The translations under genes and the position numbers were made by a program. This document shows, in pieces, positions 7,722 through 29,519 of a DNA stretch of 31,605 nucleotides. This DNA comes from a virus (Duplodnaviria; Caudoviricetes), in IMG/VR virus record IMGVR_UViG_3300032212_000110, positions 1-31,605 of that record, one strand, 5' to 3'. The first letter of the stretch is position 1, and the number at the start of each line of letters is the position of its first letter. Below the pieces are notes generated by a model that ran no database searches, was not told where the DNA came from, and saw only the letters and a program-made list of their open reading frames with translations.

Positions 7722-8072
7722 ATGGAGAAGATCATTAAAAAGTTAATTCTGCTAGCCGTTCTATTTAGCCAATCAGCACTGGCCGCCGACTGCTTGACCG
7801 TCGATCGCGTTGCTGGGCGGCTTACTTCATCCGGTGAAATAGCCGTTATATTTTCTTGGCTTGCTACTGTGTCCAATTCTTGTGGCCATGAGCAAGGTGC
7901 GGCCATATATGCTGACGCTTTAGACCCTGCCGGGTTCTCGCTTGGTTTTGATATTGATACCGGCAAGGTGCCCGCCTATGGTTCTAGTGACTTTCGCGGC
8001 ATCATTAGTGTTTCACCCGAACACAAGGATCAGGTGTCCAGCTTCACCGCCAAGGCAAACGCAAGGCAATAA
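7722..8072 (+). CDS. Secreted/periplasmic beta-rich protein (moron), opposite to the late operon
   Basis: Signal peptide MEKIIKKLILLAVLFSQSALA with an A-L-A cleavage motif; two Cys in the mature part; followed by a hairpin. Confidence 0.75.
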   Translation: MEKIIKKLILLAVLFSQSALAADCLTVDRVAGRLTSSGEIAVIFSWLATVSNSCGHEQGAAIYADALDPAGFSLGFDIDTGKVPAYGSSDFRGIISVSPEHKDQVSSFTAKANARQ

Positions 8073-8155: not shown

Positions 8156-8611
8156 TTAATCTAAACACCAAAACACCGCCCGCCTGTCCTTGGTATATGG
8201 CTGGGCGTGGCCGTGCTGTAATAACAAATCATTAAGGCTTTGGCCATCCAGTAACACACGCCCCAAATAGCTGGGTAATTTGTCGCCTGCTTCGTCTTTA
8301 GCCCTGCTCGCATAGGTGCCAAGGCGCAACCCACTAACCTGCACGCGCTGGGCTTTGGTTATCTTTTCAAGCGTAAAGGCGGCGGCTTCGCCTGCTTTTA
8401 CCTTTTCACATGCTGGCACCTTGCGCCGTGACGTGCCGCGCTTCTCGGGTGTGTCAATCTGATCCAACCTTACCGTGGCACTAACTTGCTGGCCCGGTAG
8501 TGTATAAATATTAAATAAGACAGTATCACCATCAATAACCCGCAATAAATCGGCATCATAATGCGCCAAACATAAAGAAGGCATAAACATTAATAGTATT
8601 ATTTTAATCAC
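8156..8611 (-). CDS. Thermonuclease (SNase-like) family protein with a probable signal peptide
   Basis: RVIDGDT, VRLDQIDTPE and LNDLLLQHGHA motifs; hydrophobic N-terminus IILLMFMPSLCLA. Confidence 0.9.
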   Translation of the reverse strand: MIKIILLMFMPSLCLAHYDADLLRVIDGDTVLFNIYTLPGQQVSATVRLDQIDTPEKRGTSRRKVPACEKVKAGEAAAFTLEKITKAQRVQVSGLRLGTYASRAKDEAGDKLPSYLGRVLLDGQSLNDLLLQHGHAQPYTKDRRAVFWCLD

Positions 8612-12134: not shown

Positions 12135-12374
12135 TCAGACCTTGGCCGCTATGGCTTCACACGTTTTTATAATGTCCTGACAAGTGATCCATGCCTCAAC
12201 CTGCAGATCGTCGATCACTATGTCGCCTAAGCTGCTTTCTAACTCCATTACCAATTCTATTAAGTCCAAACTATCCAGCCCTAAATGTTCCAGCGTGTCC
12301 GCTGGCGTTACTTCAATACCGCCTTGCTGCTCACTGATAACGCTTAAAACGCGTTCTTGTATTTCTTCCACCAT
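12135..12374 (-). CDS. acpP: Acyl carrier protein homolog
   Basis: 79 aa, acidic, with the phosphopantetheine motif LGLDSLDLIELVMELE and N-terminal IQERVLSVISEQ. Confidence 0.9.
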   Translation of the reverse strand: MVEEIQERVLSVISEQQGGIEVTPADTLEHLGLDSLDLIELVMELESSLGDIVIDDLQVEAWITCQDIIKTCEAIAAKV

Positions 12375-20038: not shown

Positions 20039-20641
20039 TCAGGCAGTCAATAAACCAACCGCATTGGCCAACCTGCCCGCCATATATTGACCCCAACCAG
20101 CACAAACCAACCCACCGGCAAGGTGTGGCAATATATTGCTGTGGCCGGGGGCGTCAATAAAAGGCGTGTAGCCTATTGTGTTTATATTGGTAACACGGCG
20201 ATCGGTGCCGATAAAACCAACCCGCCCCATTTTCCCCCACGGATGGTTAAACCATAACAGGCTGGCCCAAAATACGGCCCAATCCTTTTTATTATAGTAA
20301 ACATCAATATGCTGCATCGACCGTGCAAAAATACGATCCTTGTCCATAGCCGGGGCAATGGCGGCGTGGGCTAGAATGTTGGCGCCAAACTTAGCCGCCG
20401 CATTATCACAAATCAGGTTTCCGTTACTATGTGCAACCGTGACACACTCGCGGCCATTTAATATGCGCGCTAATTCTTTGGCCGGGGCGTCATTATTAAA
20501 GCGAACATCAAACAAACCCCAATCACCATAATCAAAATTTAATATTTCAAAACCGGCGGCTTTCAGGTACGGAATAACAAGATCGATCGATCCCTTGCCT
20601 TTATCCGAATCATTGAAGCCGTGAACAACAACGGCAAGCAT
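20039..20641 (-). CDS. Alpha/beta hydrolase (lipase/esterase-like)
   Basis: VVVHGF oxyanion motif, AHSNG nucleophile elbow, D.AV and GHS catalytic His. Confidence 0.88.
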   Translation of the reverse strand: MLAVVVHGFNDSDKGKGSIDLVIPYLKAAGFEILNFDYGDWGLFDVRFNNDAPAKELARILNGRECVTVAHSNGNLICDNAAAKFGANILAHAAIAPAMDKDRIFARSMQHIDVYYNKKDWAVFWASLLWFNHPWGKMGRVGFIGTDRRVTNINTIGYTPFIDAPGHSNILPHLAGGLVCAGWGQYMAGRLANAVGLLTA

Positions 20642-21177
20642 TAATAGTGCCCCTCAGTCTTTTTGTTTTTGTCTTTAATTAAGTGATCGTAAACCCGCAT
20701 TAATAAATCAGCGTCAAGCATGGCCCCGTGGTGTGTTCGGTGGCTTCGATCTATACCATAGCGATCGCATAATGAATCAAGACTGTGACCGCCGCGCGGG
20801 TGTATTTCTTTTGCCAGCTTTAATGTGCATTGAATAGGCGCGTAAGCCTCTAGCCGATCATAACCTGCGCGTTTTAATTCCATACTTAAAAATTCATCAT
20901 CAAACGGTGAGTTATGGATCTGCAGTTCTGTGCCTGAAATAAAACTAATTAGACGCGGGGCAATTTCAGAAAATAGCGGCATACCTTCTAGCATGGCGTT
21001 ACTGATACCATGAACACAAAAGGCGCCTTCGTTTATTTGCCTTTGCGGATCTATCCTTTCATAAAACCGATCAACCTCTACACCATCCACAACCTTTATG
21101 GCGCCAATCTCAATTATTCGATCACCGCGCTGCACTTCCAAGCCGGTGGTTTCTGTGTCCAAAAATGTAACATTCAT
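20641..21177 (-). CDS. dnaQ: DnaQ/epsilon-like DEDDh 3'-5' exonuclease (catalytic domain only)
   Basis: FLDTETTG, RIIEIG, IHNSPFD, SLDSLCDRYGID and HGAMLDA motifs. Confidence 0.95.
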   Translation of the reverse strand: MNVTFLDTETTGLEVQRGDRIIEIGAIKVVDGVEVDRFYERIDPQRQINEGAFCVHGISNAMLEGMPLFSEIAPRLISFISGTELQIHNSPFDDEFLSMELKRAGYDRLEAYAPIQCTLKLAKEIHPRGGHSLDSLCDRYGIDRSHRTHHGAMLDADLLMRVYDHLIKDKNKKTEGHY

Positions 21178-21306: not shown

Positions 21307-21516
21307 CTAAAAAATATTATTTTTTGGATCGGTGGTTTTCAGATCCTGGTACTTGGCGCCGCTGCATTCTACATTAACAATAGTGGGCCGCGTTATTACT
21401 GTGGGGCTTGTTACCGTTGGCGCTATTTCGTTTTTAGGTAAAATATTACACCCTGTTAAAATCGCCGTAAAACAAAAACCAACGCAAAGCAAAAGCATAA
21501 CTTTTTGTATTCTCAT
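21307..21516 (-). CDS. Small lipoprotein (possible o-spanin/Rz1-like)
   Basis: Start at 21516 overlaps the endolysin stop (ATGA); lipobox LTG-C; Pro/Thr-rich mature part. Confidence 0.7.
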   Translation of the reverse strand: MRIQKVMLLLCVGFCFTAILTGCNILPKNEIAPTVTSPTVITRPTIVNVECSGAKYQDLKTTDPKNNIF

Positions 21517-22031
21517 AACGTGGCCGCCGCTTGTTCGTGTATTAAATCGCGCCAAGATAATCCGGGCGCCTGCATGTGTGGGTATTCTTTAAATCGCCGC
21601 CAATCCCCTGCCCATTCCAGCCCGGCTAGCTTGCCCGCCTTGCCGTACTGCAACCAAAGATCGCGATCCTCTTGACGCTTCGCACCCCAAACCGGCTTAC
21701 CTTCACGCAATGGCACGCCATCAAATGCCAGCTTGTAATTGTGAAACGACTGGCCCGGCGCGGCATTAGTTACCCGGCGGCCATGCTGCGCACCAACACC
21801 GATCAAAATATCAGCCAGATCCGGGCGAGAATAAAGGCGATCAAGTTCGCCCGCTTTTTGCTTTATTGTTTTAAGTGATCGCCCGCGTCGATAAAGGCGC
21901 GCTTGTTCTTCATATGATCGGTGGGTGCAATAGATTAAAACATCAAGACCATTGGCGGCGGCAAATTTTACAAAGCTATGCGCCATGTCCTGCATTCTAG
22001 GTGCAAGATCTGTAATTAATCGGCTGGCCAT
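21513..22031 (-). CDS. Endolysin, peptidase M15 family (L-Ala-D-Glu endopeptidase-like)
   Basis: RS.EEQARLY..GR, VTNA.PGQSFHNY.LAFD, GLEWAGDW and EYPHMQ motifs. Confidence 0.93.
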   Translation of the reverse strand: MASRLITDLAPRMQDMAHSFVKFAAANGLDVLIYCTHRSYEEQARLYRRGRSLKTIKQKAGELDRLYSRPDLADILIGVGAQHGRRVTNAAPGQSFHNYKLAFDGVPLREGKPVWGAKRQEDRDLWLQYGKAGKLAGLEWAGDWRRFKEYPHMQAPGLSWRDLIHEQAAATL

Positions 22032-22405
22032 CAGTTAAATAATAGATCCGCAATTTCTTTGGCCGTGTCCTTTAGATAATGCCACGCCATTGCAAGACCC
22101 CCTGATATTATACTGAAATATGCGGCCAACTTGCCGCCCACTTTGGCAACCGTTACAACACTGCCGCCCGTGTTCCATGCCGACACTAAACCGGCTGTGT
22201 TTTCTTTTATCGCTTCAAGTGTTTTTGAATTTGTCGAGTTTAAACCAGCATTAACCAAGATCGCTTCTTCCATCCGATCCATTCTATGATTTTGCGTTTC
22301 TGCGTGCTCCTGTAAAGCTTTAACCGATTGCGCCAATAACGCCAGATCAACCGCTGACGCTCGGCGCTCTCTTTGCTCATGCTCTGCCACGATCTTACCC
22401 CGCAA
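22031..22405 (-). CDS. Putative holin (coiled coil plus C-terminal TM)
   Basis: Immediately upstream of the endolysin; ERR motif, coiled coil and one hydrophobic segment. Confidence 0.6.
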   Translation of the reverse strand: MRGKIVAEHEQRERRASAVDLALLAQSVKALQEHAETQNHRMDRMEEAILVNAGLNSTNSKTLEAIKENTAGLVSAWNTGGSVVTVAKVGGKLAAYFSIISGGLAMAWHYLKDTAKEIADLLFN

Positions 22406-22412
22406 TTATTTA

Positions 22413-22838
22413 TTAATATGTTTTTGCGTCTGCCGGGGCGATCCCCATTAATGTTAGGGCTGCATTGGCTGTGCTTTTTATCTCGGCATAGGCGGCGGGG
22501 TTACTTGATAATAAAGTTAATAATTTTTTGTTTTCAACTATTACATGGCTTGTGAGTACGACATTGCCAGCGAGTAACGCGGCATAATGGATCGCCACCT
22601 TTTCTGTTTTTATATAATTGCCATGATCATCTTTTTCTACCGTGTCGCCTGCTGATAGGTTTCCATCACCATTATAATGCGCCACCAAATAAACACCCGT
22701 GATCAGCCATTCATCAGCCTGCTGGGCTTCCTGCGTTACAACATCAACCGGCGTGGCGGCTTTTCGTGCTGCGGTGGCTTGGTTAAATCCTGATAGTGAC
22801 AAACATAAAACCACTAGTGTTAAAATATAGTTTTTCAT
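22413..22838 (-). CDS. Signal-peptide protein in the tail-fibre-assembly gene position
   Basis: MKNYILTLVVLCLSLSGFNQATA, with an A-T-A cleavage motif; directly follows the fibre gene. Confidence 0.75.
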   Translation of the reverse strand: MKNYILTLVVLCLSLSGFNQATAARKAATPVDVVTQEAQQADEWLITGVYLVAHYNGDGNLSAGDTVEKDDHGNYIKTEKVAIHYAALLAGNVVLTSHVIVENKKLLTLLSSNPAAYAEIKSTANAALTLMGIAPADAKTY

Positions 22839-22856
22839 TTTTATTATTTCCCCGTT

Positions 22857-25559
22857 TTAGTTCGGTATTCTTAAACACTTAAAACCTGTACCGCATGAAT
22901 CTGCCGCGCCTACTGTTACGCGGCCCAATGCCGCGTTGTCAACATCATAAATAGAAAGCGCAGTGTTGCCCGCTGTGGCGGTATCATCTAGCTGGAACCT
23001 CTGCACGTTGGCGAGATACAAGCGAAACTGATCCAATGCTCTCTGATACACAAAATAATCTTGCGAGTCATAATTTATATTTGGGTTGGCGCCATTCATA
23101 AACATTTTAAAATTGGCATCACCGCCGAAACTAGCGCCGCCCGACATGGTTCCCAATGCCTCTACACCGTCATAATGTAATTTTACAGATGGAGTGGCGC
23201 CACCGACTTCCACGCCGGTTTTATATGTTCCTACGCTATTTTTAGATCCCAAATAAACTAAACCAGAATTGCTATTAGCTCTTATATTAAAATTACCCGT
23301 TATATTGAATAAAAACGCCGATGATCCATTGTGGTAAAACTCCATGTCGTTACCGGCACCAAGGTAAACAGACTGGTTATCCCCAAGGTTTAAATTTCCG
23401 CCAAATGTCGCCGCCGTATCTGTAATTGTGAACTGGTTGGTGGTGGCGTTATCATCGATCCCGGTACTTGTAAACGTGGAAACGGTGGCCGCCGCCGGTG
23501 TCGTTGCGCCAATAACAGTGCCATCAATATTGCCGCCTGTGATTGCTACCGCCGATTCGTCATAAGCCGTGCCCGCGCTGGTTGTCTCAATCCATACCGC
23601 CGCTGTGCTGGTCGCATCTAAACACGTGTAAGCCTTATCCGCTGTTACATCAAACCAATACGATCCAACGGAATAACCAGCCCCCGTGTCGTCTGTTGCG
23701 GTGGGCACCGTGGTGGCGGTTAAGTTTTGTTTTAAATTTGGAACATTACCAAGGTTAACTTGCGTGGCTGTTACTGCGTGCGGGTTCGCGGTGTCGCTGG
23801 TGTGCGTGGTTAAGGCTGAATTGGTCGCCGCATCAACTGCAGCGATCTTGCTTGCACTCCACAATTCTGTGGCAGCCGTGCCCGCGTCATTGATTAAACG
23901 GTGTTTGGTGTCGTCGGCTATATGGGTGTCAATTTGTGTATGGGTGTTGGTGCCCGCGCCTGAAATATTTTGGTGGACGATCGCGGCTTCCGCTACGTCC
24001 AGATCTATTTCATTATTTGCGGCGTCATTCGTAACCGTTAAACGCGCACTGCCGGTATTAATGTTTTTGAATTGCAGATCTTCGGCGGCTTTCGTGTCAA
24101 AAACACCCACACCACCGGCGCCGGTGTTGCTGGCCGTGTTAACTTCACCCGATCCGCCCGCGCTGGTTGTCTCAATCCATACCGCTGCTGTGCTGGTCGC
24201 ATCTAAGCACGTGTAAGCCTTATCCGCCGTTGTATCAAACCAGTAAGATCCGACCGCGTAACCTGCGCCCGTGTCGTCTGTTGCGGTGGGCGCTGTGGTG
24301 GCGATTAAGTTTTGTTTTAAATTCGGAACATTGCCAAGGTTAATTTGTGCGGCTGTTACTGTGTGCGGGTTCGCGGTGTCGCTGGTGTGCGTGGTTAATG
24401 CTGAATTGGTCGCCGCATCAACTGCAGTGATCTTGCTTGCACTCCACAATTCTGTGGCAGCCGTGCCCGCGTCATTGATTAAACGGTGTTTGGTGTCGTC
24501 GCTGGTGTGCGTGGTTAATGCTGAATTGGTCGCCGCATCAACTGCAGCGATCTTGCTTGCACTCCACAATTCTGTGGCAGCCGTGCCCGCGTCATTGATC
24601 AAACGGTGTTTGGTGTCGTCGCCTATATGGGTGTCAATTTGTGCATGGGCGTTGGTGCCCGCGCCTGAAATATTTTGGTGGACGATCGCGGCTTCCGCTA
24701 CGTCCAGATCTATTTCATTATTTGCGGCGTCATTCGTAACCGTTAAACGTGCACTGCCAGTGTTAATGCTTCGCAATTCATGGCCGCCCGCCGTGGCGCC
24801 ATCAACAACCGAAACACCACCCACGCCAGCATTGGCCAGCGTCACTGTGTGCGGGTTCGCTGTGTCGCCCGTGTGCGTGGTTAAGGCTGAATTGGTCGCC
24901 GCATCAACTGCAGCGATCTTGCTAGCACTCCACAATTCCGTGGCACTCGTGCCCGCATCATTGATTAAACGGTGTTTGGTGTCATCTGCCAAGTGCGAAT
25001 CTTGCGCGGCACCATCTGTGGAAATGTCTCGCCCATCAACGGTGCCCGCTGTGGCCATATTTCCTGAATCATCAATAGTGATCGCGCTATTTTCTGCCAG
25101 CTTGCCGCCGGTGCCGCTAAAGCGTGCGATCGCGTTATCTGTTGAAAGCGCCGGGCCTTCGATTTTTTCATCAAGTAAAGACTGGATCGGGGTTGTTGCG
25201 GGTACGCCAAGGCCAAGGATAAAACCAAGATCGGCGGCTGTGCCTTCGGTTACGGTTACTTTGGTGCCAAGCGTTACCCGCTTGCCATCCGGGTATGTGA
25301 TCTTTATGTCATAAGTGCCAGCCTGAACCGATAAACTATAAGTGCCTGACGCGTCCAGCGTTGTGCTGGCGCTTGCGCCACGAGGCAACCCGGTGGCGCC
25401 GCCTGTTGTTGTTCGCGCCTTAAATGATAAAACGGCTGAATCCAAGCCCACACCATAAGGATCAACCAATGCGCCCGTGATCGTTCTTGCGGCCTGAACC
25501 TGCAGAGAAACCGCAAGCAATAAAAAAGCCGCAAAAGCGGCCAGTTTCTTAAATAGCAT
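22857..25559 (-). CDS. Tail fibre-like protein with an N-terminal Sec signal peptide and modular internal repeats
   Basis: After MLFKKLAAFAAFLLLAVSLQVQA comes a lambda Stf N-terminal-like domain (ITGALVDPYG...G.YSLSVQAG.Y.I), His-containing fibre repeats (H..DTANPH.VT), AITGGNIDGTVIG and a beta-rich tip. Confidence 0.85.
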   Translation of the reverse strand: MLFKKLAAFAAFLLLAVSLQVQAARTITGALVDPYGVGLDSAVLSFKARTTTGGATGLPRGASASTTLDASGTYSLSVQAGTYDIKITYPDGKRVTLGTKVTVTEGTAADLGFILGLGVPATTPIQSLLDEKIEGPALSTDNAIARFSGTGGKLAENSAITIDDSGNMATAGTVDGRDISTDGAAQDSHLADDTKHRLINDAGTSATELWSASKIAAVDAATNSALTTHTGDTANPHTVTLANAGVGGVSVVDGATAGGHELRSINTGSARLTVTNDAANNEIDLDVAEAAIVHQNISGAGTNAHAQIDTHIGDDTKHRLINDAGTAATELWSASKIAAVDAATNSALTTHTSDDTKHRLINDAGTAATELWSASKITAVDAATNSALTTHTSDTANPHTVTAAQINLGNVPNLKQNLIATTAPTATDDTGAGYAVGSYWFDTTADKAYTCLDATSTAAVWIETTSAGGSGEVNTASNTGAGGVGVFDTKAAEDLQFKNINTGSARLTVTNDAANNEIDLDVAEAAIVHQNISGAGTNTHTQIDTHIADDTKHRLINDAGTAATELWSASKIAAVDAATNSALTTHTSDTANPHAVTATQVNLGNVPNLKQNLTATTVPTATDDTGAGYSVGSYWFDVTADKAYTCLDATSTAAVWIETTSAGTAYDESAVAITGGNIDGTVIGATTPAAATVSTFTSTGIDDNATTNQFTITDTAATFGGNLNLGDNQSVYLGAGNDMEFYHNGSSAFLFNITGNFNIRANSNSGLVYLGSKNSVGTYKTGVEVGGATPSVKLHYDGVEALGTMSGGASFGGDANFKMFMNGANPNINYDSQDYFVYQRALDQFRLYLANVQRFQLDDTATAGNTALSIYDVDNAALGRVTVGAADSCGTGFKCLRIPN
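23571..24985. repeat. Nested near-identical coding repeats in the fibre gene
   Basis: 23571-24063 is repeated at 24156-24768 with an extra tandem 120-bp unit (~24378-24620); a fourth copy of that unit lies at ~24871-24985. Confidence 0.92.
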
Positions 25560-25580
25560 TATATTAAAACCTCTTTTATT

Positions 25581-27848
25581 TTAAGCCACTGTTTCTATAG
25601 ATAGCCGCACTTGATCGGGCCTTCCGCCGGGGCCGCTTCCCGGTATAAGATGGGTTTCCATCACTTCGCATTTTTTCGACACAATGCCGCCGCCAATGTC
25701 GTGCGTGTATTCAACAACATCACCGCGCTGCAAATCCGCATTACCCAAATGCGTTAAAAATTCATAAACGTCCTGCGGATCTTTAAAGTGCGAAATAATA
25801 CCGGCGGCGCTATTCGCCACCGTGGCCGCATCATTAACCTGTGAAAAAACCACCGTGCGCGAAGCATCCCGCGTGCCATAACTTGCAACCGATCCCGCAT
25901 CTTCTTGCCGCTCTGTTTTAATATACTTTTTCAGATCTTCCCGGTAGTCGTATGGCGCATCAATTTTGTTAATTATTTGCCTGCGCTGTGTTTTCTTCAT
26001 TGAAAGCGAATTGATCACCGTGTCGTTTTTTGTGATCGCTCTAACGCTGGCCGTGGCTGTGGTAGGTAAAACAGTTAGCATGGCCTTGCCTGAATCCCAA
26101 AAGAAACGCGCAAGGCTTTGCCATGCGATCGATCTGCATAGCTTGGTAACTTCAATCTGTTTGGTGATTGAAAAACCCACTTTGGTGCCAACGGGAAAAC
26201 CGGGATCGGCTGTTATGCTGGCATCAAGATCGCCCACCACAACATTGTTGGCGTGGTTTAATAAAATATGCTCGATCACTGCGTGCGGCGTTTCTATGTT
26301 ATGGCCCACAAGATCGCATGATATAACCTCGCCCAACGCCGTTTCGGCCACGCTGTTACCATCAAGATCGATCGCCCCTGCCCTATACGCATTGGATGAT
26401 GATGCTGAGATCGTGCCATCCTCTGTGTAGGAAACGCTTAACGGCGTAACCTCATAAAGCCTTGTATAGATTGACCCATAACCAACGCCGTTTTTTATTG
26501 ATATAGCCATACTGGCAACATCGGCCCAATCATTTATAGAAATATCTTTTGTTACTGTAAAATCATTTTGCGCGGTAAATTCATTAGCATAAGCCAAAAC
26601 CTGAAAGCCCCAACTTATATAGCCGTTACCTGTTGAGGTTCCGCCGGACGATTCCGTATAAAAAAGGGCGCGGATCCTTATGCTTAATTTATGCGGATCC
26701 TTTCCTGACGTACTAGAATTATAAGTAGTAAAAACATTAACAGGGTTCGAGGCCGTATTAGATCCCGAGCCTGTAAGCGTGATCTGTGTTTCGTCGTTTC
26801 CATCTATTATGTTGTTACATAATGAACCCGAACACCCTGTGACGGTTAACCCGATCCCGCCTGACGCGCTAGAATCATGCGTATGGCTTCCATTTTCTAC
26901 GGTTAAAGAATCCGCGATCGTCAAGCTTGCTTCATGCTCAAAGTATGGGCGAGCATCAAACCGCAAAAACGCGGCGCCGCCTTCGCTTAAAACCTTAGTA
27001 AACCCGGAAACAATACGAACGCCATCTATATAAACATCACCAATGGATTGCACCGGGTGATCTGCTACAAGGTATTCGTATTCGGCCTGTATCTCAATAA
27101 CCTGCGTGCCAATATCGTGCCCTGTGGCGGGTGTACTGTTTGCCCCTCGCGTGCAACCTGTTAACGTGTTGCCGGTTTTCCCTGTGTAGGTGATTTCCTC
27201 TCGATCCATTCGCACGGTGCCGCTTGACGGGAAAAAAGCCGCGTTTGTTAGTTCGATCGATGTATCCATACTTACAACATAATCAACCGCCGTGGATATG
27301 CCGCCCACATCAACCGGCTGGCACACATGCCCGCTAACTGAACCATAAACGATCGGCTTCATTTTTCCGATAGCATCAGGATCCGCACCGGCGTATTCAT
27401 CCGCCGTTAACAATTCGCCCACCATTGCGTTTTTTTGCGCTTCAATTCCTGAAACAGAAAAGGTGGCTTTTTCTAATGTGATCAATATCGGATCACTTAT
27501 CACCCCGGCAAACACTTGCTCGCGGTCGGACGCTGTTAGCCCTTCCCCATCTATAAATAGATAAATGCGGATCACACTGTCCATTTTAACAAGGCTTGAA
27601 ATATCGCTAGGCAACTGCGAAGTAGTTAGGCGGGTTTTATTAACAACGCCGCCACCACTAATGCGATCAGTGATAGCGCCAAGGCTTCCCCATTCCACGA
27701 TCCTTGGTTCGTAAGCTTGCCCGCCAACCGTGATGACATGATCAGACCAATAATACGTTGATCCGCCTGCGTCCAATTCAACTAAAAAGACCGGCTTGCT
27801 TGACGTTTTCGCCAACGCGGTGGCCATACCCGCTGTGGTTGTCCTCAC
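25581..27848 (-). CDS. Tail tip/baseplate hub protein with inserted domains
   Basis: Follows the distal tail gene; PIVYG motif, SVASYG.R and LQRGDVV C-terminal hub motifs. Confidence 0.8.
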   Translation of the reverse strand: MRTTTAGMATALAKTSSKPVFLVELDAGGSTYYWSDHVITVGGQAYEPRIVEWGSLGAITDRISGGGVVNKTRLTTSQLPSDISSLVKMDSVIRIYLFIDGEGLTASDREQVFAGVISDPILITLEKATFSVSGIEAQKNAMVGELLTADEYAGADPDAIGKMKPIVYGSVSGHVCQPVDVGGISTAVDYVVSMDTSIELTNAAFFPSSGTVRMDREEITYTGKTGNTLTGCTRGANSTPATGHDIGTQVIEIQAEYEYLVADHPVQSIGDVYIDGVRIVSGFTKVLSEGGAAFLRFDARPYFEHEASLTIADSLTVENGSHTHDSSASGGIGLTVTGCSGSLCNNIIDGNDETQITLTGSGSNTASNPVNVFTTYNSSTSGKDPHKLSIRIRALFYTESSGGTSTGNGYISWGFQVLAYANEFTAQNDFTVTKDISINDWADVASMAISIKNGVGYGSIYTRLYEVTPLSVSYTEDGTISASSSNAYRAGAIDLDGNSVAETALGEVISCDLVGHNIETPHAVIEHILLNHANNVVVGDLDASITADPGFPVGTKVGFSITKQIEVTKLCRSIAWQSLARFFWDSGKAMLTVLPTTATASVRAITKNDTVINSLSMKKTQRRQIINKIDAPYDYREDLKKYIKTERQEDAGSVASYGTRDASRTVVFSQVNDAATVANSAAGIISHFKDPQDVYEFLTHLGNADLQRGDVVEYTHDIGGGIVSKKCEVMETHLIPGSGPGGRPDQVRLSIETVA

Positions 27849-28238: not shown

Positions 28239-29519
28239 TTATAAAAATCCGCCTTGCTCGGTTCCGGTGATAACAGGCTGATCGATCACGGTGATCCCGC
28301 CTATTCTTTGCGGATCATCATCTGCGCGCGTTGAATTGGCAACCACTCCGCCAGTGAAACCACCCACCACCGCGCCAACGGCTGCACCTGCTGGGCCAAA
28401 TAATGCGCCAACCTTTGCGCCACCGGCGGCGCCTGCCAAAATGCCTAAAATTTCCCGGTTTTCGCTTACCCAATTTGAGAGCCTTGTGAGGTTATCCACT
28501 GTGCTTGACACTGCACTAGAAAATGTCTCCCATGCAGCAGACAAGGTGCCATTCTCAATAGCCGTGGCCACTCTCACAACCGCATTGGCCACAATGTTGA
28601 GCCATTTATCAAGCTTTGTCTTGATCAGCCCTTCGTTGGCTTTCACCCATGCGGTTAACTCTCGCACCATCGGGATCAATACTTTCTCAATGAACGGCGC
28701 CAGTGCTTCGGTTAATGGCTTGCCCACCGTTTCAGCTAATGTGGTTAGGCTGGCATTAAGGCTGGCAACCTTGCCCTGATAGGTTTCTGTTAATTCTGCA
28801 GCGTTACCCTGAAAGGCGCTAGCTTCTTGTAAAATACCAGTATAGATCGCCGTTTTCTTTTCCGCCTCGCTCAACTGGCCCACCGTCTTGCCTATGCTGG
28901 CCGCATATTCTTTTTGCAAAACACTTAAATTTTTAGTGATACCGGCATTGTCCACCAATATACTGTTTTCGTTTTTAATCCCTTCCGTGGCGCTTATCAC
29001 CGCTTCACCAAATGAAAGCGCGCCTTGCCTGCCAAATGCGGCGGCGTCTTTAGTGGCATTAATGAGATCGATTGACTCATTAAGACCGAAACCGGAAAGC
29101 AAAAGGTTTTTTAATGCGCTGGCTGCATCTGATACGGTTAAAAGCCCATCTTCTGCCAAATCAATGGCGGCGGCCTTGGCTAGATTTGCGTTAACTACTA
29201 AACTTTCTCCGGCTTCGCTAACCACGGTGGATAAACGATCCGCCACGGCGCTTAACCCCCTTAACGCACTATCGGCTTTGTTAAATTTACCGATCGCGGC
29301 ATCAATTAGCCGCGTAGCGCCCCATGCAGTTAAAAAGCCCGTCACTAACGTGGGTAGATTAAAAAGCGTTTTTCTTAACCCGCTTAAAACCTTACCAACA
29401 CCGCGCACGCTTTTGCTTGCGCGCTTGTTGAATTTTTTAAAGCCATTGCCGACCTTGCCTAACACAAGGCTGGCTTTATCTACTGCGGCGATCACAAATG
29501 AAACCTGCTTATTGTTCAT
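28239..29519 (-). CDS. Tail tape measure protein (short, 426 aa)
   Basis: I.AVDKAS N-terminus, Ala-rich helices, GIKNENSILVDNAGITKN motif and Gly-rich C-terminal hydrophobic segment. Confidence 0.9.
   Translation of the reverse strand: MNNKQVSFVIAAVDKASLVLGKVGNGFKKFNKRASKSVRGVGKVLSGLRKTLFNLPTLVTGFLTAWGATRLIDAAIGKFNKADSALRGLSAVADRLSTVVSEAGESLVVNANLAKAAAIDLAEDGLLTVSDAASALKNLLLSGFGLNESIDLINATKDAAAFGRQGALSFGEAVISATEGIKNENSILVDNAGITKNLSVLQKEYAASIGKTVGQLSEAEKKTAIYTGILQEASAFQGNAAELTETYQGKVASLNASLTTLAETVGKPLTEALAPFIEKVLIPMVRELTAWVKANEGLIKTKLDKWLNIVANAVVRVATAIENGTLSAAWETFSSAVSSTVDNLTRLSNWVSENREILGILAGAAGGAKVGALFGPAGAAVGAVVGGFTGGVVANSTRADDDPQRIGGITVIDQPVITGTEQGGFL

Follow-up and report, generated by a model that had tools for sequence, protein, structure and literature searches.

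In the tailed-phage genome IMGVR_UViG_3300032212_000110 (Duplodnaviria; Caudoviricetes), whose whole 31,605-nucleotide stretch was analysed and is called the window here, a 900-residue tail fibre and the 141-residue product of the next gene, hereafter the partner, both begin with likely Sec signal peptides, as predicted from their sequences. The fibre starts with MLFKKLAAFAAFLLLAVSLQVQA followed by ARTITG, and the partner with MKNYILTLVVLCLSLSGFNQATA followed by ARKAATP. We consider export of the two proteins very probable, and we lean slightly towards a fuller route in which both would be exported, fold in the periplasm and dock on finished tails at lysis. Tailed-phage particles are regarded as built wholly in the cytoplasm, and a full-text literature search, with subscription journals mostly outside its reach, returned no description of Sec-exported fibres of tailed phages. 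The available parts of PMC10811340, PMC11924767, PMC9144972 and two 2026 preprints (a set that includes Tunturi, JC1, huge-phage and pilus-phage work) hold no passage on leader-bearing fibres.

Leaders were scored with a purpose-made heuristic for n-, h- and c-regions, not with SignalP, and compared with nulls. Both leaders combine a basic n-region, an uncharged hydrophobic h-region and small residues at positions -3 and -1. Among the 49 listed open reading frames (ORFs), the fibre ranks first (4.83) and the partner second (4.24). When all 40-codon open stretches beginning with Met were taken from the six frames (311), 3 scored at least 4.2, namely the fibre, the partner and a separate small ORF at 7722-8072 (+). 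Random 22-codon leaders reached 4.8 in 1 of 9,000 trials, and in 2,000 shuffles of the leader residues the observed score was attained at rates of 1.15% for the fibre and 0.05% for the partner. The two ORFs and their leaders are thus present as an initial annotation of this DNA had described them. Its statement that no other structural protein has such a leader holds for the head and tail proteins, none of which scores above 2.7, with the addition that non-structural genes also carry leaders (the nuclease at 8156-8611, ORF 7722-8072 and the lipoprotein at 21307-21516). The same annotation had noted an AGAGG ribosome-binding site and a distant next Met: AGAGG lies 10 nt 5' of the fibre ATG, itself 21 nt past the stop of the gene in tail hub position, and the next Met is residue 168; codons 15-30 contain no ATG, GTG or TTG. 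The leader letters are identical in a Logan contig of run X1, possibly the source sample, and an assembly artefact was rejected.

An Stf-like domain begins right at the predicted cut, as had also been proposed. Residues 24-117 match PHROG tail-fibre families, and the predicted mature start, ARTITG, equals the start of the homologue P0022 after its Met (MARTITG). Pfam PF08400 remains below its curated cut-off for the fibre (18.5 bits versus 26.6), as does CarboxypepD_reg (30.8 versus 32.3); Atlas structure matches of this anchor domain comprise PF08400 clusters, with template-modelling (TM) scores of 0.60-0.64, and also CarboxypepD-type domains. A profile of 22 anchor sequences matches PDB 9e7m_Ta, 'tail fiber protein' (E 2.5e-11), which we take to be lambda gpStfN from its 94-residue length and its sequence, and PDB 7kjk_A3, 'collar spike protein' (E 6.7e-11), presumably Vibrio XM1. 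Like Ur-lambda gpStf (PF08400), the fibre has this N-terminal anchor, a position behind the tail-tip genes and a small gene directly after it. Whereas the domain of lambda Stf begins at Met1, that of the window fibre is preceded by a 23-residue leader; instead of the T4 gp37-like tip and the Tfa gene of lambda, the window has a stalk and tip of other families and a next gene that is not Tfa. Neither its tip nor the partner has a Pfam or PHROG match to T4 gp37-like tips or Tfa. The partner has no Pfam, PHROG or NCBIfam match at all, so its earlier placement in the Tfa chaperone slot does not extend to Tfa-family membership. By these comparisons, the fibre is lambda Stf-like and departs from the Stf type in its leader, its tip and its partner.

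Leaders on fibres and on their next genes were compared across loci sharing the fibre tip. The tip pattern, i.e. the last 17 fibre residues with two cysteine positions left open, retrieved 81 viral loci, 74 of them complete, which yield 60 non-redundant fibres, 5 with leaders. When genes within 60 nt of these 60 complete fibres were considered, the gene 3' of the fibre itself has a leader behind 2 of 5 fibres with leaders and behind 0 of 38 without (Fisher p 0.011). Among 2,379 ORFs, the best non-self matches of the partner are the genes directly behind the leaderless same-tip fibres of L045/L094 (E 0.007), and a profile of these genes and the L084 next gene recovers the partner (E 0.0013). 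Hidden leaders are excluded in these relatives because in-frame stops lie just upstream. Since leaderless relatives follow same-tip fibres, the partner likely belongs with the fibre tip and moved compartment with it.

The cysteine pair of the window tip recurs in 1 of the 81 loci, L081, whose fibre bears a leader and has no other Cys. In a test set down before it was run, the pair is found in 1 of 5 leader-bearing and 0 of 55 leaderless fibres (p 0.083, or 0.008 with the window counted, over the 60 fibres). The tip of L081 is not the nearest to that of the window (31 of 45 residues shared, compared with 34 of 45), a sign of possible convergence, although the residues are too few for proof. Among the best 119 of 136 stalk relatives, 9 have leader scores of at least 3.6 (7 clear by eye). 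The leader-bearing P0200, from residue 24 on, and the leaderless P0193, from residue 2 on, align over 432 columns with 50% identity; P0200 was not filed as StfN, since the best that its N-domain achieves against the StfN profile is E 0.04. PDB profile searches with the tip or the partner returned nothing, and single-sequence folds were unusable (predicted local distance difference test, pLDDT, 39.7 for the partner and 34.5 for the tip).

A number of results weigh against export and the proposed route. When anchor homologues were sought among 1.84 billion representatives, 147 matches other than the fibre itself were obtained, 30 of which are single N-terminal matches; the 117 others, repeat-rich multi-stretch bacterial-type proteins, were left out of the leader count. 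Compared as proteins, so that shortened gene calls could hide leaders, 29 of the 30 begin at most 9 residues from the domain and are leaderless, and the remaining one, P0141, resembles a secreted bacterial-type protein. Gp26 of the cultured marine phage Paraglaciecola Antarctic JLT virus 2 (MW805362), which has the same anchor (profile E 2e-11) near the end of its tail module, starts MASITLAG and cannot have a leader because its start overlaps the upstream stop. The initial annotation had looked to homologues for a conserved leader; these proteins instead start at the domain, which is the chief finding against a conserved system. On this comparison, we read the fibre leader as a lineage-specific gain, neither a false leader nor a conserved family trait. 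No close relative of the phage was found that would speak for conservation of the leader or selection on it; a word-indexed search with fibre residues 24-135 returned only the fibre itself.

Three of the 5 leader-bearing fibres have no leader on the next gene, which is holin- or terminase-like, so the co-occurrence of leaders in both genes that had been proposed as a check appears in part of the same-tip loci. The homology of the partner is weak (26% over 110 residues, and E 0.59 by phmmer with the L084 next gene), and no leader-bearing homologue was found in word-indexed, viral-contig, genome or metagenome searches. The word-indexed search returned only the partner itself, genomes none, and metagenomes the window's own contig and one 20-residue match; viral-contig scans with the partner, the hub-position protein or fibre residues 744-900 gave no relative, and with the whole fibre two loci, each sharing one repeat. 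One partner pattern search, which is circular, returned only its three source contigs. For the genes with leaders that follow the fibres of L032 and L022, the loci contain no leaderless homologue. The 60 fibres, clustered at 60% identity only, are not fully independent, and the Cys-pair test depends on a single independent locus. Cys makes up 0.46% of the mature fibre, against medians of 0.42% in leaderless and 0.77% in leader-bearing relatives, and the stalk Cys are also present in leaderless relatives. The leaderless hub-position gene encodes 7 Cys, and disulfides are described in the Milano phage virion in the available part of PMC10811340, so cysteines do not require export. The earlier interpretation is supported in part: export of both proteins draws on the tracking of leaders between neighbouring genes and on a tip Cys pair seen only with a leader.

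In the route that we propose, Sec export and cleavage after Ala23 would restore the ancestral N-terminus ARTITG. Late expression would be followed by folding of the fibre trimer in the periplasm, helped or capped by the partner, which would act on the tip and hence had to follow the fibre out, and Cys889 and Cys895 would form a tip disulfide. Between holin triggering and outer-membrane rupture, the fibres would attach to completed tails from outside, and their anchor domains would encircle the junction of tube and tip in a collar like that of Ur-lambda. We infer a periplasm for the host because the capsid, nearest to proteobacterial phages (about 41%), and DnaQ, which matches dnaQ_proteo below cut-off, point to Proteobacteria as the host group. 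In extracts of T4 and P22, particles that are already complete can still acquire fibres or spikes. According to the available part of PMC12617516, residues 1-94 of Ur-lambda gpStf are present in 12 copies as a collar on the outer side of the gpV/gpM junction, and the side fibres are non-essential, with plaque counts unaffected. Late docking would be feasible because this counterpart domain forms an external, dispensable collar, and the route is testable in E. coli with lambda, since the Ur-lambda anchor is solved, external and dispensable and the leaderless fibre and partner versions provide natural controls. We regard as evenly balanced the broader proposal of a second assembly compartment in tailed phages, in which fibre and tip partner would switch jointly and repeatedly to Sec export, mature with disulfides in the periplasm and join virions during lysis, illustrated here by a lambda Stf-type collar, for which the docking site is known from structure, with a possibly terminator-derived leader. 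If fibres are exported and added at lysis, oxidative folding in the periplasm would be open to receptor-binding parts, and lysis would form part of virion assembly; annotation pipelines may class such fibres as secreted host-type proteins.

Precedents for leader-bearing fibre or structural genes exist in the GenBank records of two cultured phages. Gp49 of Burkholderia phage Bcep781 (NP_705672), recorded as 'possible tail fiber; possible signal peptide domain', has a leader score of 4.43 and 15 Cys; it belongs to another phage group and has another N-terminal domain than the window fibre. In Cellulophaga phage phi18:3, the adjacent gp085-gp087 (KC821620) have leader-like starts (3.55, 4.53 and 3.99) and are annotated as structural from tandem mass spectrometry (MS/MS), although MS/MS of a preparation need not mean stoichiometric attachment; seven other scored structural proteins of this phage have no leader-like start. 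Its host is a member of the Bacteroidota, whereas that of the window is placed by inference in Proteobacteria.

The leaders would also be explained if the proteins were exported and never bound to virions, the fibres being set free at lysis (as decoys or as bridging adhesins in the mat) or serving in the lysogen envelope, like Bdellovibrio MAT fibres or the host-domesticated RbmB. We consider this unlikely. Trimeric autotransporters such as Eib/YadA have a C-terminal beta-barrel anchor; the window fibre ends in the tip motif, with no second hydrophobic segment and no Pfam match for such an anchor, and no membrane anchor or barrel was found in the fibre or the partner, which speaks against this reading. 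The temperate nature of the phage and the dispensability of Stf-type fibres speak for it. Against it, both genes belong to the late operon, flanked by the hub and lysis genes, and our scan detected no promoter-like site immediately 5' of them. As far as the available part of PMC10769870 goes, MAT fibres unite a signal peptide, a beta-rich N-domain and a phage-like trimeric fibre with variable tip, a layout of which the window shows the leader and may have the trimer, and the MAT N-domain has no PDB homologue, whereas the window anchor matches a virion collar domain. MAT fibres are chromosomal bacterial surface adhesins, whereas the window fibre gene lies in a phage tail operon. The stalk match P0262 looks MAT-like by eye, and secreted bacterial proteins contain CarboxypepD-type domains that the anchor resembles in fold, but the anchor is intact and phage-type, and its profile has no match to P0262 at E<=1. 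RbmB, which has a leader, is related to leaderless prophage tail proteins, as stated in the accessible part of bioRxiv 2024.08.19.608685.

It is improbable that the fibre leader is non-functional, i.e. formerly intergenic or terminator DNA that is now translated ahead of a protein which remains in the cytoplasm, has its true start further on, or is misdirected and effectively lost like laboratory lambda's broken stf. No anchor-domain homologue has the leader, and a GC hairpin and a U-run overlie its codons 6-13, the h-region DNA encoding AAFAAFL; 1.1% of 1,500 synonymous recodings match this structure, a further point against export. That test was run only after the hairpin had been noticed; the scan contains 17 terminator-like sites versus 12.6 +/- 3.6 in shuffles, and a longer fold of the leader DNA favours a competing pairing, to c-region DNA, over the hairpin. 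In addition, 44 nt of the leader (25487-25530) match, with 5 differences, a 24,226-nt contig of run X1 (depth 15) with unrelated flanks, so the leader DNA may come from elsewhere; a flank of this match looks hairpin-like by eye. A CRISPR (clustered regularly interspaced short palindromic repeats) origin of the match was dropped by eye, as its two flanks differ. The contig is a possible donor or non-coding source of the leader; together, hairpin and match may record an origin from non-coding DNA or be incidental, and the hairpin could limit read-through into the fibre and lysis genes. Against a non-functional leader stand the good ribosome-binding site at codon 1, the lack of a usable start in codons 15-30, complete n-, h- and c-regions, the tip cysteine pair, the intact 900-codon frame and the partner's own leader, which is unrelated to that of the fibre and whose DNA has no such hairpin. 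In a further reading, the two leaders have nothing to do with each other and the partner is a periplasmic lysis regulator at the head of the lysis cassette, like the T4 antiholin RI, an exported lysis regulator (PMC8385771, as far as available) that likewise has a leader. We judge this very improbable: its only relatives are leaderless and lie behind same-tip fibres, with no holin next in L045/L094 or L084, and the 124-residue holin candidate of the window does not have the large C-terminal periplasmic domain of the T4 system. Export followed by docking at lysis remains the reading that we favour.

The features discussed are listed in Table 1. A 127-nt terminal repeat identifies the window as a complete circular phage genome (31.5 kb), the circle being closed by a Logan contig. 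It is that of a temperate siphophage with a serine integrase, a Q-like gene and lambda-type terminase, portal, tube and terminator genes. On the minus strand, the late genes follow the order tape measure, 130-residue gene, 755-residue hub-position gene, fibre, partner, holin-like gene, M15 endolysin and lipobox protein. The hub-position gene has no family match at E<=0.01. The sole run listed with this genome is labelled microbial mat, and no RNA dataset is among the runs listed as holding its sequence. A capsid search gave one viral-contig locus, without tail genes, and none in genomes.

Table 1. Coordinates of the fibre, the partner and adjoining features in the window
Feature	Position	Strand	Remark
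Fibre, 900 residues	22857-25559	-	
Fibre leader, codons 1-23, predicted Sec/SPI signal peptide	25491..25559	-	cut after VQA; heuristic, not SignalP
AGAGG ribosome-binding-like site	25570..25574	-	10 nt 5' of fibre ATG
Terminator-like hairpin and U-run inside leader-coding DNA	25521..25542	-	codons about 6-13; free energy (dG) -10.6
gpStf-N-like anchor domain	25209..25490	-	residues 24 to about 117
Fibre stalk	23571..24989	-	recent internal duplications (585-nt and 120-nt spacings; copies 89-97% identical)
C-terminal tip module ending GAADSCGTGFKCLRIPN	22857..23030	-	Cys889 and Cys895 in place of the usual Gly and Val
Partner, 141 residues	22413-22838	-	
Partner leader, codons 1-23, predicted Sec/SPI signal peptide	22770..22838	-	heuristic, not SignalP
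Mature partner, 118 residues	22413..22769	-	weak homology to leaderless genes behind same-tip fibres (L045/L094, L084)
755-residue gene in tail hub/central-fibre position, without leader	25581..27848	-	function from position only
Lysis cassette	21307..22405	-	
Holin-like gene, 124 residues	22031-22405	-	by position; weak hydrophobicity
M15 endolysin	21513-22031	-	
Lipobox protein	21307-21516	-	

Several observations concern relatives of the fibre. Stand-alone Stf-N-like proteins of 90-110 residues occur among the anchor-homologue matches, and in Vibrio phage D456 (L004, 4953-5279) a 108-residue stand-alone Stf-N-like domain gene lies directly 5' of the portal gene. The leaderless fibre behind gpJ in Pseudomonas phage D14O (L103, 1237-3126), a D3-like record, carries the same tip motif at its end. 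In the 77-kb contig L032, leader-bearing genes cluster round the fibre, and a short lipoprotein-like one ends in a second copy of the tip motif.

Elsewhere in the window, the lipobox protein gene stands alone 3' of the endolysin, with no obvious i-spanin gene adjoining. The tape measure (28239-29519, -) is short, with 426 residues and a C-terminal glycine zipper, and its length therefore implies a short tail. ORF 7722-8072 (+), of 116 residues, opposes the operon direction; it has a leader score of 4.38, two Cys in its mature part and no family match, and we predict its product to be a moron-like exported protein. The nuclease at 8156-8611 (-) is of the SNase family and has a leader-like start (score 3.46). 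The phage also carries an acyl carrier protein and a DnaQ-like exonuclease domain, at 12135-12374 and 20641-21177 (-).

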